A stretch of 64,000 nt of DNA from Gammaproteobacteria bacterium (GTDB lineage Bacteria > Pseudomonadota > Gammaproteobacteria > UBA4575): NCBI GenBank assembly GCA_965243395.1, contig CBDEUS010000002.1, forward strand, positions 978,293-1,042,292. Direction: 5' to 3'. Numbering within the stretch: position 1 is the first letter of the stretch; the number at the start of each line of letters is the position of its first letter. Of this stretch, positions 1 through 6,293 are shown one piece after another. The position numbers and the translations under genes are program-made. The notes beneath the pieces were generated by a model that saw only the letters and a program-made list of their open reading frames with translations, had not been told where the DNA came from and did no database searches.

Positions 1-749
1 ATATCTGTCATACGGTAGTTAAACCCTAAATCTATTTGCTGATAATACCAACCACCATCAGGTTTATGCGTCATTAGCTTAGGATCTCGGGTAATGCCAT
101 GATTACGTAGCAAAGCTAGTTTATTTGCCAGCGATTGGCAATTTGTTAAGGCCATTCCGCCTTCTGCAGTCGTGATAATTTTAACTGGATGAAAGCTGAA
201 AACTGTAATGTCACTAAAACGACAGTTTCCAATTGGCTCATTTTTATATTTTCCACCAATTGCGTGCGAAGCATCTTCAATGATGCTGAATCCGTATTCT
301 TTGCTAAGTTGATGTATTTTTTCCATTTCACATGACTGGCCACTGAAATGAATAGGAATGACGATTTTAGGAAGTTTGCCAGTTTTTTTAGCAGCAGAAA
401 GTTTTTTTTCGAGGTGATTTACACTGATATTATATGTGCGTGGATCAATATCTATAAAGTCAACGGTTGCTCCACAGAATAAAGCACAGTTTGCGCTTGC
501 AACAAAAGTAATTGGACTTGTCCAAACAAGATCACCCTCGCTAGCGCCTAATGCAAGGCAAGCGATATGCAATGCAGAAGTTGCACTGTTCACTGCAACT
601 GCATACTTACTGCCACAATAGTCATTAACTGACTGCTCGAATGCTGGTACGGTCGGTCCTTGTGTTAGATAGTCAGATTTCAGGACATCAACAACAGCTT
701 GAATATCATCATCGCTGATAGACTGGCGGCCGTAAGGGATAAAGCTCAT
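1..749 (-). CDS. DegT/DnrJ/EryC1-family PLP-dependent sugar aminotransferase (PseC-like). It is partial: the 3' end runs off the window start.
   Basis: The reverse complement from 749 reads MSFIPYGRQSISDDDIQAVVDVLKSDYLTQGPTVPAFEQSVNDYCGSKYAVAVNSATSALHIACLALG..., a typical DegT N-terminus. Its ATG overlaps the pseB-like stop (ATGA at 747-751). It has no in-window stop, so it is absent from the ORF track. Confidence 0.7.
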   Translation of the reverse strand, partial: MSFIPYGRQSISDDDIQAVVDVLKSDYLTQGPTVPAFEQSVNDYCGSKYAVAVNSATSALHIACLALGASEGDLVWTSPITFVASANCALFCGATVDFIDIDPRTYNISVNHLEKKLSAAKKTGKLPKIVIPIHFSGQSCEMEKIHQLSKEYGFSIIEDASHAIGGKYKNEPIGNCRFSDITVFSFHPVKIITTAEGGMALTNCQSLANKLALLRNHGITRDPKLMTHKPDGGWYYQQIDLGFNYRMTD

Positions 750-1747
750 CAAATATTTCCGATTTTAGCTTTATTGATTTTTATCCATTTGCGTAATGTT
801 TCGATACTCATCCAATCATCATTGGTATCACTAGCATATCTAAAGCTATCAGCAACCTGGATTCCATCTTTAATTCGCTTTGTATCTTGACTCCAATTAT
901 TAATGTTAGGAAGTATTTTAAAGTAGTTTGGGTATTCATAAGTATAGTTAGAATCTTCCGAGCTTATCATTTGTTCATGTAGTTTTTCACCAGGACGAAT
1001 ACCAACAATATTATGTTTAGCATTTGGTGCTATAGCGAGTGCAATATCAGTTAGTTTCATGGATGGAATCTTCTTTATATAAATTTCGCCACCTTCCATA
1101 TCCTCGAATGAGTGCCATACTAATTCTACACTCTCTTCCAAGGTAATCATGAAACGTGTCATACGATCGTCAGTTATTGGTAAAGTACCAGCCTCAGCAA
1201 TTGAGAGAAATAAAGGTATTACAGAACCACGCGAACCCATAACATTTCCATAACGGACAACAGAAAACTTTGTTTCTTTACCACCTGCATATGAATTCCC
1301 TGCAACAAATACTTTGTCAGAAGCAAGTTTAGTAGCACCATAAAGGTTAACAGGACTGCTTGCTTTGTCTGTTGATAATGCAACCACACGCTTTACACCC
1401 TGATCGATACATGCATCAATAAGGTTCATTGCACCATTGATGTTGGTTTTGATGCATTCAAACGGATTATATTCAGCAATTGGTACAATTTTAGTTGCAG
1501 CAGCATGTACTACATAATCAACCCCATCAAGGGCGCGATAAAGACGTTCTTTATCACGAACATCACCAATAAAAAAACGTATGCGATCCTCTCCTTGGAA
1601 ATTTTTTGCCATTTCCCATTGCTTCATCTCATCCCTCGAGTAAATAATAATTTTCTTGGGATTGTATTTAGCAAGAGTCATTGGGGTGAACGTATGACCA
1701 AATGATCCAGTACCGCCTGTTACTAAAATTGTTGAGTTTGTTAACAT
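749..1747 (-). CDS. UDP-N-acetylglucosamine 4,6-dehydratase, soluble inverting type (PseB/FlaA1/CapD-like).
   Basis: 332 aa with an N-terminal Rossmann motif ILVTGGTGSFG. The length and a YxxxK-containing core fit the soluble PseB-type extended SDR. Confidence 0.75.
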   Translation of the reverse strand: MLTNSTILVTGGTGSFGHTFTPMTLAKYNPKKIIIYSRDEMKQWEMAKNFQGEDRIRFFIGDVRDKERLYRALDGVDYVVHAAATKIVPIAEYNPFECIKTNINGAMNLIDACIDQGVKRVVALSTDKASSPVNLYGATKLASDKVFVAGNSYAGGKETKFSVVRYGNVMGSRGSVIPLFLSIAEAGTLPITDDRMTRFMITLEESVELVWHSFEDMEGGEIYIKKIPSMKLTDIALAIAPNAKHNIVGIRPGEKLHEQMISSEDSNYTYEYPNYFKILPNINNWSQDTKRIKDGIQVADSFRYASDTNDDWMSIETLRKWIKINKAKIGNI

Positions 1748-2085
1748 GTTATATAAATTCAGCCTATATTGATAAAAATTTAATTTGATTAAAAATGTAA
1801 TTCTGAGCTATTGATTTTTAACAAAATAAAAATTTTGAGTTAGTTTCATTTAAAGTAGGGTAGACTTTTGGAGTAAATATATCATCCAAGAAATTCAAAC
1901 TATTTATTAGTATAGGTTATATTATTTTGAGAAAAAGTCTTACGAAGAAGGTTATGAAAGGCAATATATGGCTGACTAGAAATTATAGGCTTGCAAATTT
2001 GGCAGCATTTTCTATATATAAATATACTCAACATTTCTTAAAAATTTTTAGATTGCGAGCAAGTCAGTTAGCGAGTATTAGGTTA

Positions 2086-5215: not shown

Positions 5216-5216
5216 A

Positions 5217-6293
5217 CTATGATGAGTTTCCTGCTAATTGAGCTTGATATTTATGTAATGCTTCTGGGAATTGTTCAATACATTCAGCAGCAAACATTGA
5301 AACATCAATAGTATCGTTCAGAAGTTTTTCCTTAGCGTTTTTCCAATTATGCGGAGGTTTTTTCAATAAGGATTGAATGCAAGACTTAAGGGTATTCAAA
5401 TTAAGTAATTTGATATTTCTGACTAATCCATATTTTATTTCTAGTTCGTCTGTGTAGCCACGTCCTGTGTTTGCAGCATAAATAGCTGGAGTGCCCAGCA
5501 CAGCAGATTCCGAAGCCATTGTTGCGCTTTCGCCAATAAACATGCGGCAGAAAGCTAATACATGGTGTATTTGACTAATTTTTCCATGATAACGCAATGA
5601 CTCATATTTTTGTGGCAAGCCCCCTTCTGCAGAAATGATAACTTTGCCTTTTGTTTCAAGAAAACTTACTAATGAAGATAGCAGCTCAGTAGTCCAGCCT
5701 TGTTCACCTAAGTCGTGGTTTGCTTGCCAAGAGACAAGTCGTAATAGAAACGTAGGTTCACTGGAAGATAAGCCATTCTTAATAGCTATACTTTTATTTG
5801 CAGTGAAGTATTGTGGGTGTAGATAAGATAGTTCGTGATAGCCATTATAACGAATATGTTTTCTTTTAGGTGTCCAGGCACTATAACACGAGGGCACAAT
5901 TACACATGATGCAAATGGATAAGTTATAGCGTTTTGTAAAGTTGCATTTTCTGTATCATAAAATATTAGCGATTTTGTGCTAGTTATAATACCAATATGT
6001 GAAATAAATGTGCCGCCAATTGCTGCCATTATATCAGGATTAAATTTTTTTACGATTTTAAATAATTCTGCATCTCTTTTAACAAGTTCAGTTGCTAAAC
6101 CAATTAAACTTTTACGATTGTTTAATGAAGATATTGGTTTATGCTGAAAATTGAGTTCATCTAATAATTCTAGAGCGACCTCTTTGTCTCTACTAGTAAT
6201 TAATACTTCATGTCCTCGATCAATTAGAATATTTAGAGGATTTTTAAAAAAATGCGCATGTGCGGGGTGTGTAATATCAATAAGTATGCGCAT
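5217..6293 (-). CDS. DUF354-family protein (GT-B-like fold, function unknown).
   Basis: 358 aa. The N-terminus MRILIDITHPAHAHFFKNPL matches my memory of the DUF354 signature. It is tightly packed between the AsnB-like gene and the GT2 gene. Confidence 0.5.
   Translation of the reverse strand: MRILIDITHPAHAHFFKNPLNILIDRGHEVLITSRDKEVALELLDELNFQHKPISSLNNRKSLIGLATELVKRDAELFKIVKKFNPDIMAAIGGTFISHIGIITSTKSLIFYDTENATLQNAITYPFASCVIVPSCYSAWTPKRKHIRYNGYHELSYLHPQYFTANKSIAIKNGLSSSEPTFLLRLVSWQANHDLGEQGWTTELLSSLVSFLETKGKVIISAEGGLPQKYESLRYHGKISQIHHVLAFCRMFIGESATMASESAVLGTPAIYAANTGRGYTDELEIKYGLVRNIKLLNLNTLKSCIQSLLKKPPHNWKNAKEKLLNDTIDVSMFAAECIEQFPEALHKYQAQLAGNSS

Follow-up and report, generated by a model that had tools for sequence, protein, structure and literature searches.

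The first 6293 nucleotides of the 64-kb stretch of gammaproteobacterial DNA analysed here (the window, in whose coordinates all positions are given) carry a set of sugar genes that we read as the sugar supply of a pilin glycosylation island, which lies directly behind the major pilin gene pilA, resembles the TfpW system of Pseudomonas aeruginosa and has been reshuffled by recombination. We put the probability of this reading at about 60%. Judging from gene order in related genomes, the island has two layers. The genes for a DUF354 protein and an AsnB-family amidotransferase (6293-3365), together with the upstream genes for a GT2 glycosyltransferase and a GT-C membrane glycosyltransferase with a C-terminal tetratricopeptide repeat domain (GT-C/TPR), form a cassette that recurs beside pilA in many Gammaproteobacteria. 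The gene for a GT4 glycosyltransferase and pseB-pseC (3168 to before position 1) are variable cargo, including the start of a pseudaminic acid (Pse) operon that extends beyond the window edge. Labels such as L066 denote the related loci and metagenome contigs that were compared with the window.

The locus is transcribed from the minus strand in the order pilS-pilR-pilA-GT-C-GT2-DUF354-AsnB-GT4-PseB-PseC (Table 1), and the five sugar genes proved to lie where an earlier note on this DNA had placed them, on the strand that also encodes pilA, pilR and pilS. The first gene behind pilA, which starts 70 bp downstream of it, encodes the candidate pilin transferase. This protein displays at least 9 hydrophobic segments in residues 1-410 and, behind its first membrane helix, a DD motif that is invariant; TPR matches cover residues ~460-640. 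Fold comparison of its AlphaFold2 (AF2) model identified the dolichyl phosphate mannose (Dol-P-Man)-dependent protein O-mannosyltransferases Pmt4 and Pmt2 as the closest structures, which bears out the GT-C fold that had been proposed for this 648-aa neighbour of the sugar genes. At the sequence level, a PDB search with the protein returned TPR matches only, and no Pfam model was found for the membrane domain in any of the 36 homologues scanned at E <= 1. TfpW, the pilin arabinosyltransferase of P. aeruginosa Pa5196/PA7, has 646 aa, is encoded directly downstream of pilA, and comprises 11 membrane helices, a TPR domain and an essential DDx motif; in some species, sugar genes are clustered with pilA-tfpW. 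A strong intrinsic terminator separates pilA from the GT-C gene, and a terminator 3' of the pilin gene has also been described, as an attenuator, for pilin-accessory gene cassettes (PMC11841053). The GT2 protein carries its hydrophobic segments at residues 210-273, and its best NCBIfam matches, all under the cut-offs, are AglJ, PpgS, a Dol-P-hexose transferase and ArnC.

The GT-C/TPR family is large, with 2551 matches at E <= 0.001 among the candidates scored; its members from cultured bacteria, in Janthinobacterium and Xanthomonadaceae, are proteins annotated as 'hypothetical' or 'TPR protein'. TfpM, a Wzy_C-type enzyme of Moraxellaceae, is unrelated; Pfam detected a Wzy_C domain (PglL/TfpO/TfpM type) in no island protein.

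The recurrence of the cassette was assessed by scanning one genome per species for DUF354, which yielded 53 loci onto which the window proteins were mapped. The order pilS-pilR-pilA-GT-C/TPR-GT2-DUF354-AsnB is kept in relatives whose DUF354 is 57-72% identical to that of the window, the carriers being metagenome-assembled genomes labelled Gammaproteobacteria, Chromatiaceae/Chromatiales and Thiohalomonadales. In a cultured Hahella strain, pilA, GT-C, GT2 and DUF354 are retained, whereas the only AsnB-family gene downstream is a distant one (28%). At the 30 informative loci (species-level, with 5.5 kb or more of sequence upstream), GT2 was adjacent in 22 cases, and GT-C/TPR and pilA were each found upstream in 17. 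The linkage to pilA that the earlier note had supposed holds between strains and across many lineages. As to the cargo, PseB and PseC of the window occur in none of the other core-type islands, and a distant GT4 (~30% identical) in only two of them.

These islands also vary in ways that the window does not display. In a commoner type (L001:12929-20937, L002-L004), AsnB is followed by a 394-aa soluble protein of no family, three S-adenosylmethionine-dependent methyltransferases and a 728-aa ADH_zinc/GFO_IDH_MocA fusion; further on, L001-type islands carry, on the opposite strand, genes for an LPG_synthase_TM protein, a hexapeptide acetyltransferase and an inositol-monophosphatase-family protein. 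From this gene set, one would expect a Wbp-like diacetamido-uronic sugar with heavy methylation. Ahead of GT2-DUF354-AsnB, tandem paralogues of the GT-C/TPR gene, or a second pilin gene, were seen at L004:5229-9082 and L018:5652-9423, and in L026, L040 and L043.

The stop codon of DUF354 lies 1 nt from the ATG of asnB in the window, and AsnB directly follows DUF354 in ~36 loci (those in which DUF354 is at least 54% identical to the window protein), but not after the DUF354 homologue of the closest relatives (DUF354', see below): DUF354 and AsnB are a tightly, translationally coupled pair. DUF354 itself matches PF04007 with 60 bits (threshold 22) and has 4775 homologues at E <= 0.001. Comparison of AF2 models predicts a GT-B fold, closest to the UDP-GlcNAc 2-epimerases, with ~12% identity in the structural alignment; no sequence match was found to the PF02350 epimerases nor, in a PDB sequence search, to any solved structure. 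A literature search on the family returned only a 2015 remote-homology note, which describes it as glycosyltransferase-like with poorly conserved catalytic residues.

The AsnB protein passes the generic AsnB model TIGR01536 (404.8 bits, cut-off 267.1) and contains the catalytic apparatus expected of this family, namely the Cys2 nucleophile (MCGIAGW start) and an SGGIDS PP-loop (LSGGIDSAT). It also aligns end to end (residues 1-609 to positions 1-625 of 628) with TIGR03108 (eps_aminotran_1), with a score of 377.8 bits that is far under the cut-off of 816.9. PseA-type enzymes, by contrast, are PP-loop 'N-acetyl sugar amidotransferases' that are not known to carry an N-terminal nucleophile (Ntn) glutaminase domain, and the NCBIfam scan of AsnB (E <= 0.001) returned no matches other than AsnB-type and related amidotransferase models. 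By these profile matches, the window protein resembles WbpS/eps_aminotran_1 rather than PseA; of the 'AsnB/PseA-like' description given earlier, the AsnB half stands, while nothing in these matches speaks for PseA. The TIGR03108 family includes WbpS, WbqG and PGN_1234, which convert uronic acids into uronamides (PMC7468200). A literature search found no paper joining PseA, acetamidino and amidotransferase. By analogy with the Wbp pathway, we propose that the DUF354-AsnB pair would make an epimerised N-acetyl-hexosaminuronamide-type sugar. A role for AsnB in modifying Pse was also considered and ruled out, since AsnB is anticorrelated with the Pse genes across loci: it accompanies DUF354 and GT2 in islands without Pse genes and is missing at this position in the Pse-bearing L061, L064 and L066.

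The assignment of pseB and pseC is firm. PseB passes the equivalog model TIGR03589 over its full length (537.3 bits, cut-off 407.75), and the PseC fragment in the window scores 397 bits over 245 of the 380 positions of TIGR03588. Look-ups of the exact PseB and PilR sequences gave no match. Two 3-kb metagenome contigs provide conspecific sequence: L060, 99.7% identical over 6254-9290, and L065, 99.6% identical over 1-1100. The latter encodes a full-length PseC (387 aa, P0241) that scores 571.1 bits (cut-off 423.5). As the earlier note had claimed, PseB and PseC are true enzymes of the pseudaminic acid pathway. The suspicion that the operon runs on past the window start was equally well founded. 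Indeed, L065 reaches ~2 kb past this point, through the full-length PseC gene, a NeuB-like gene and then PseF (partial, 168.6 bits over 183 of 222 positions). The PseG/PseH fusion and PseI (477.6 bits, cut-off 340) were seen only in the relatives L061, L064 and L066, from which the gene content of the source genome beyond PseF is deduced.

In L066, L061 and L064, the order is pilA, GT-C, GT2, DUF354', PseB, PseC, NeuB-like, PseF, PseG/PseH fusion, PseI and a TIGR04396/BFO_1060-like transferase. DUF354' has 342 aa and is 52-53% identical to DUF354 of the window. Next in the island of L066 come genes for a 425-aa protein that spans the membrane several times and has the look of a Wzx-type flippase, although it has no family match, and for a GT4, after which the island ends at pilB. 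In L063, GT4 comes directly after DUF354 and is followed by methyltransferases, TylF, a Wzx-type gene (Pfam Polysacc_synt) and another Asn synthase. The NeuB-like paralogue of the Pse operon scores under both the NeuB and the PseI cut-offs, the true PseI being encoded further downstream in the relatives. On L065 (1525-2454) the predicted product of this gene has 309 aa and a gap of 136 bp comes after the gene, whereas in L064 and L066 it encodes 353 aa and abuts PseF; the short version could result from truncation of the paralogue or from a fault in the assembly.

Comparison of the window with these relatives at the DNA level reveals where the locus was recombined. Homology to L061, L064 and L066 extends from pilS through the first 70-110 nt of DUF354, stopping at ~6181-6224, and resumes ~140 bp upstream of pseB (~1889). 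The pseB-proximal ~140 bp of the spacer (1748-1889) are homologous to the DUF354'-pseB spacer of L064; this homology ends at ~1889, which places the right-hand recombination junction near that position, the left-hand one being inside the 5' end of DUF354 (~6181-6224). The 4.3 kb between the two junctions (the body of DUF354, AsnB and GT4) stand in place of the ~1-kb DUF354' of the relatives. PseB is 93-94% identical to its counterparts in L066 and L064 (84-94% across L066, L061 and L064), and GT4 is 62% identical to the GT4 of island L063 and 56% identical to the one at the pilB end of L066. To judge by these identities, the island of the window is a composite of an L001-type DUF354-AsnB pair (68-71% protein identity), an L063/L066-type GT4 and the Pse operon of L064/L066. 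The mosaic nature of the locus, which the earlier note had put forward, is thus borne out by the break and return of homology to its closest relatives.

The pilin end of the island is variable as well. The pilA and GT-C genes vary together and are discordant with the relationships of pilS and pilR, as is expected if a pilin and its accessory genes are swapped as a unit. L066, for instance, is the nearest relative by PilR (92% identity versus 86-87% in L061, L063 and L064), yet its GT-C is the most divergent among the close relatives (60% versus 75-77%). This pattern suggests that pilin-plus-accessory alleles are exchanged as units.

The GC content is 38.4% for the window and 34.0% for 1-6293. 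Of the 58 open reading frames (ORFs), that of GT4 ranks last in GC, with 28.3% overall and 18.8% at the third positions of codons (z = -3.2), and its two flanking gaps (3169-3364 and 1748-2085) have the second and third lowest GC of 28 intergenic regions (23.0% and 25.1%). No other 1.6 kb of the window is as poor in GC as 1748-3364, which has 27.0%, the runner-up elsewhere having 33.0%. The other genes of the locus are only about one standard deviation under the window mean (34.9-36.5% versus 39.1 +/- 3.4%). The description 'very AT-rich', which had been applied to the whole region, is therefore apt for GT4 and its gaps only. In the relatives, the GT4 homologues are AT-rich too (29.4% and 31.4% GC), and the island genes are lower in GC than their flanks in every case; low GC is therefore a standing property of the island gene pool and does not reflect a recent import. 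It points to a shuffling inside this long-standing pool. The idea that GT4 arrived recently from a foreign donor of low GC was considered and ruled out on the same grounds, the homologues in the relatives' islands being equally AT-rich. Of the piecemeal horizontal acquisition that had been suggested, the mosaic is retained and the recent foreign import is not. In 1-9700, a search for repeats revealed neither insertion-sequence ends nor att-like repeats nor remnants of genes around GT4 or at the junctions, and an Rfam scan of 1-13200 gave nothing credible, with no RNA elements at the junctions.

Starting from the gene identities, folds, synteny, junctions and composition observed, we infer the lipid carrier, the sugars other than Pse, the pilin acceptor and the role of the island as follows. 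In the cytoplasm, the Pse enzymes would make CMP-pseudaminic acid, and the 2-epimerase-like DUF354 and the WbpS-like AsnB would make an epimerised, amidated N-acetyl-hexosaminuronic-acid-type sugar. GT2 would load sugar onto undecaprenyl phosphate, and the lipid-linked sugar may be lengthened by GT4 and by a nonulosonic-acid transferase encoded beyond the window. This extension would possibly take place in the cytoplasm before flipping, as for archaeal Dol-P-linked glycans, and the flippase-like protein of L066 would fit such a scheme. Once the glycan has been flipped, the PMT-like GT-C/TPR enzyme would attach it in the periplasm to Ser/Thr residues of the pilin, the part that TfpW plays in Pseudomonas. 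In this scheme the conserved sugar would be tailored by DUF354 and AsnB, and residues particular to the lineage would come from GT4 and from the Pse operon with its putative transferase. The low GC content and the strain-to-strain reshuffling would reflect diversifying selection on a surface exposed to phages.

Several observations weigh against this reading. The GT2-DUF354-AsnB module has no detectable pilA upstream in 13 of the 30 informative loci, and the Emb-like proline motif of TfpW, YX6PFX7P, is absent from the GT-C protein, as judged from a regular-expression search. The part of the island that lies in the window encodes neither a GtrA- or ArnE/F-type flippase nor the UDP-sugar 6-dehydrogenase needed for the uronamide route, and the pilB boundary of the source island is taken from the relative L066. 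CMP-Pse is not known to serve GT2 polyprenyl-phosphate transferases as a donor, which makes it hard to see how Pse would reach a periplasmic GT-C.

In one alternative, the functions are split: only the core (GT-C, GT2, DUF354 and AsnB) would modify the pilin with a single lipid-phosphate-linked sugar, and the Pse operon and GT4 would serve flagellin, lipopolysaccharide (LPS) or general protein O-glycosylation, and their place in this island would be due only to the site being a hot spot of recombination. Three-component systems built on a GT2 and a GT-C normally handle single sugars, CMP-Pse is to our knowledge not usable in the periplasm, and the core and the Pse genes are inherited independently, the L001-type core being found without Pse, and Pse without AsnB in L061, L064 and L066. 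We nevertheless regard this alternative as doubtful: no flagellar or Maf-type genes are found nearby, the Pse operon, the putative transferase, the flippase-like protein and GT4 all lie between pilA and pilB in three relatives, and the presence of a dedicated transferase in the same operon suggests the assembly of one shared glycan.

The sugars could also be destined for another surface structure altogether, namely LPS or capsule and not the pilus, if the region were the edge of a gene cluster for O-antigen, capsule or another surface polysaccharide that happens to adjoin pilA; the earlier note had envisaged an O-antigen or capsule cluster in this place. Genes of the Pse, GT4 and AsnB/WbpS types are frequent in loci for O-antigen or capsule, for which low GC and strain-to-strain replacement are typical, and flippase candidates exist in the islands of relatives (Polysacc_synt in L063, the 425-aa membrane protein in L066). 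However, neither 1-9108 nor islands L061, L063, L064 and L066 contain a recognisable initiating phosphoglycosyltransferase, Wzy, Wzz, WaaL or ABC exporter, and the island of L066, the nearest relative, is bracketed by pilA and pilB. Besides, the core cassette is linked to pilA across distant lineages, and the transferase beside pilA has a protein O-mannosyltransferase fold. A polysaccharide cluster is therefore unlikely. It is highly improbable that GT-C and GT2 modify a non-pilin acceptor in the periplasm, such as lipid A or core, as does ArnT, or another envelope glycan, with DUF354 and AsnB tailoring the sugar in question.

If the island does glycosylate the pilin, a bolder proposal can be made, which we offer tentatively, as possible rather than probable. 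The pilA-linked GT-C/TPR-GT2-DUF354-AsnB cassette might be an undescribed but widespread route to O-glycosylated pilins in environmental Gammaproteobacteria; in it, an AglJ-like GT2 would prime the glycan on undecaprenyl monophosphate in the manner of archaeal Dol-P N-glycans, DUF354, as a new clade of NDP-sugar 2-epimerases, and a uronamide-forming AsnB would tailor it, Pse would cap it in this lineage and the PMT-like GT-C would transfer the block to the pilin.

Table 1. Features of the pilin locus and the adjoining sugar genes (window coordinates)
Feature	Position	Strand	Remarks
pseC, 5' two-thirds (249 codons)	1..749	-	ATG at 749-747, gene exits window start; TIGR03588
pseB, UDP-GlcNAc 4,6-dehydratase (inverting), 332 aa	749..1747	-	TIGR03589
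AT-rich spacer, 338 bp, 25.1% GC	1748..2085		between GT4 and pseB
GT4-family glycosyltransferase, 360 aa	2086..3168	-	Pfam Glycos_transf_1 PF00534 + PF13692
AT-rich spacer, 196 bp, 23.0% GC	3169..3364		between asnB and GT4
AsnB-family glutamine-dependent amidotransferase, 616 aa	3365..5215	-	Pfam GATase_7 + Asn_synthase; TIGR01536
DUF354 protein, 358 aa	5217..6293	-	PF04007
GT2 polyprenyl-phosphate glycosyltransferase, 287 aa	6302..7165	-	PF00535; C-terminal membrane helices
GT-C membrane glycosyltransferase, 648 aa, C-terminal TPR domain	7162..9108	-	fold comparison; TfpW-like architecture
Strong intrinsic terminator	9123..9152	-	13-bp stem, 6 GC pairs, T-run; between pilA and GT-C gene
pilA, type IVa major pilin, 149 aa	9179..9628	-	Pfam Pilin + N_methyl
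pilR	9941..11302	-	two-component regulator upstream of pilA
pilS	11299..12957	-	two-component regulator upstream of pilA

Two details of the earlier annotation had to be amended. The junction of pseB and pseC, said to be a 4-nt ATGA overlap, reads TGATGA, which gives a 1-nt overlap (TGATG). The gene labelled 'GT1' does encode a glycosyltransferase with the Pfam domain Glycos_transf_1, but this domain corresponds to family GT4 of CAZy and not to its GT1. A weak sigma-54-like element, TGGCACGATATCTGTA (9777-9792, minus strand), lies ~150 bp upstream of the pilA ATG and fits control of pilA by PilR. In the sigma-54 promoter scan, pattern matches across the window were not above chance, and none was found ahead of GT4, pseB or the other sugar genes.

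On the far side of pilS lie housekeeping genes (sucCD, nadE, bamD, rluD, pgeF, clpB, proS, dapA and dxs), the first of which, sucCD-nadE, are on the opposite strand; pilB is found nowhere in the 64 kb. Two small low-GC ORFs are located between pgeF and clpB (19546-20518, minus strand), encoding 102 aa (33.7% GC) and 208 aa (31.9% GC). The latter, the only one of the pair that was scanned, has no Pfam match and has the second-lowest GC among the window genes.

Pilin glycosylation islands and TfpW-type enzymes are already known, so that the island is not a new kind of system, and the presence of sugar genes beside pilA is a moderate, largely expected result once the island is recognised. A search of the literature did not find the cassette GT-C/TPR (no Pfam model)-GT2-DUF354-AsnB or its breadth in uncultured Gammaproteobacteria. 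Glycosylated pilins are known from a few pathogens, which their sugar coat protects against antibodies and against phages that target the pilus. From this locus and the dozens of related ones, it seems that a different and far more widespread cassette serves this purpose in uncultured environmental Gammaproteobacteria, and the version in the window, with its spliced-in Pse operon, is a clear case of module swapping. If our reading holds, PF04007/DUF354, a family with more than 4,700 detected members and no assigned function, gains a first functional context and a testable role, a new GT-C family without any Pfam model is defined, and the islands offer a natural set of interchangeable sugar modules for glycoengineering.

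Among known systems, the Wbp pathway is the one to which the coupled pair is likened, through the full-length alignment of AsnB to the WbpS family and the 2-epimerase fold of DUF354, as in WbpI; the window differs in that the TIGR03108 score is far under the cut-off, PF02350 is not matched and a UDP-sugar 6-dehydrogenase is lacking. The TfpW system, to which the island is likened on the basis of its published description, shares with it a GT-C fold enzyme of ~646-648 aa directly behind pilA, with N-terminal membrane helices, a DDx motif and a periplasmic C-terminal TPR domain, as well as a terminator 3' of pilA and, as proposed for the window locus, a donor built on polyprenyl phosphate by separate cytoplasmic enzymes. 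By contrast, the window has no genes for D-arabinofuranose (no DprE or UbiA-type domain was found in the island genes) and no TfpX-like gene, and relies on GT2 as the putative carrier-loading enzyme, together with DUF354, AsnB, GT4 and the Pse genes.

For the sugar itself there is a precedent in P. aeruginosa 1244, where a Pse-containing O-antigen unit is put on the pilin by TfpO, although the window has no oligosaccharyltransferase of this Wzy_C type (TfpO/PglL). The Pse pathway of Campylobacter and Helicobacter (PseB, C, H, G, I and F) is represented by the PseB and PseC equivalogs and, on the conspecific contig or in relatives, by PseF, PseG/H and PseI, but here it comes without Maf-type or flagellar genes and with an extra NeuB-like paralogue in the operon. 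Finally, the three-component GtrA/GtrB/GtrC and ArnC/ArnT systems and PMT O-mannosylation have in common with the island a GT2 with C-terminal helices paired with a GT-C, Pmt4 and Pmt2 being the best structural matches. The GT-C of the window differs in having TPR instead of MIR domains, and no small flippase of the GtrA or ArnE/F type was seen in the window, whose extra cytoplasmic transferases and Pse pathway suggest that an oligosaccharide, and not a single sugar, is transferred.

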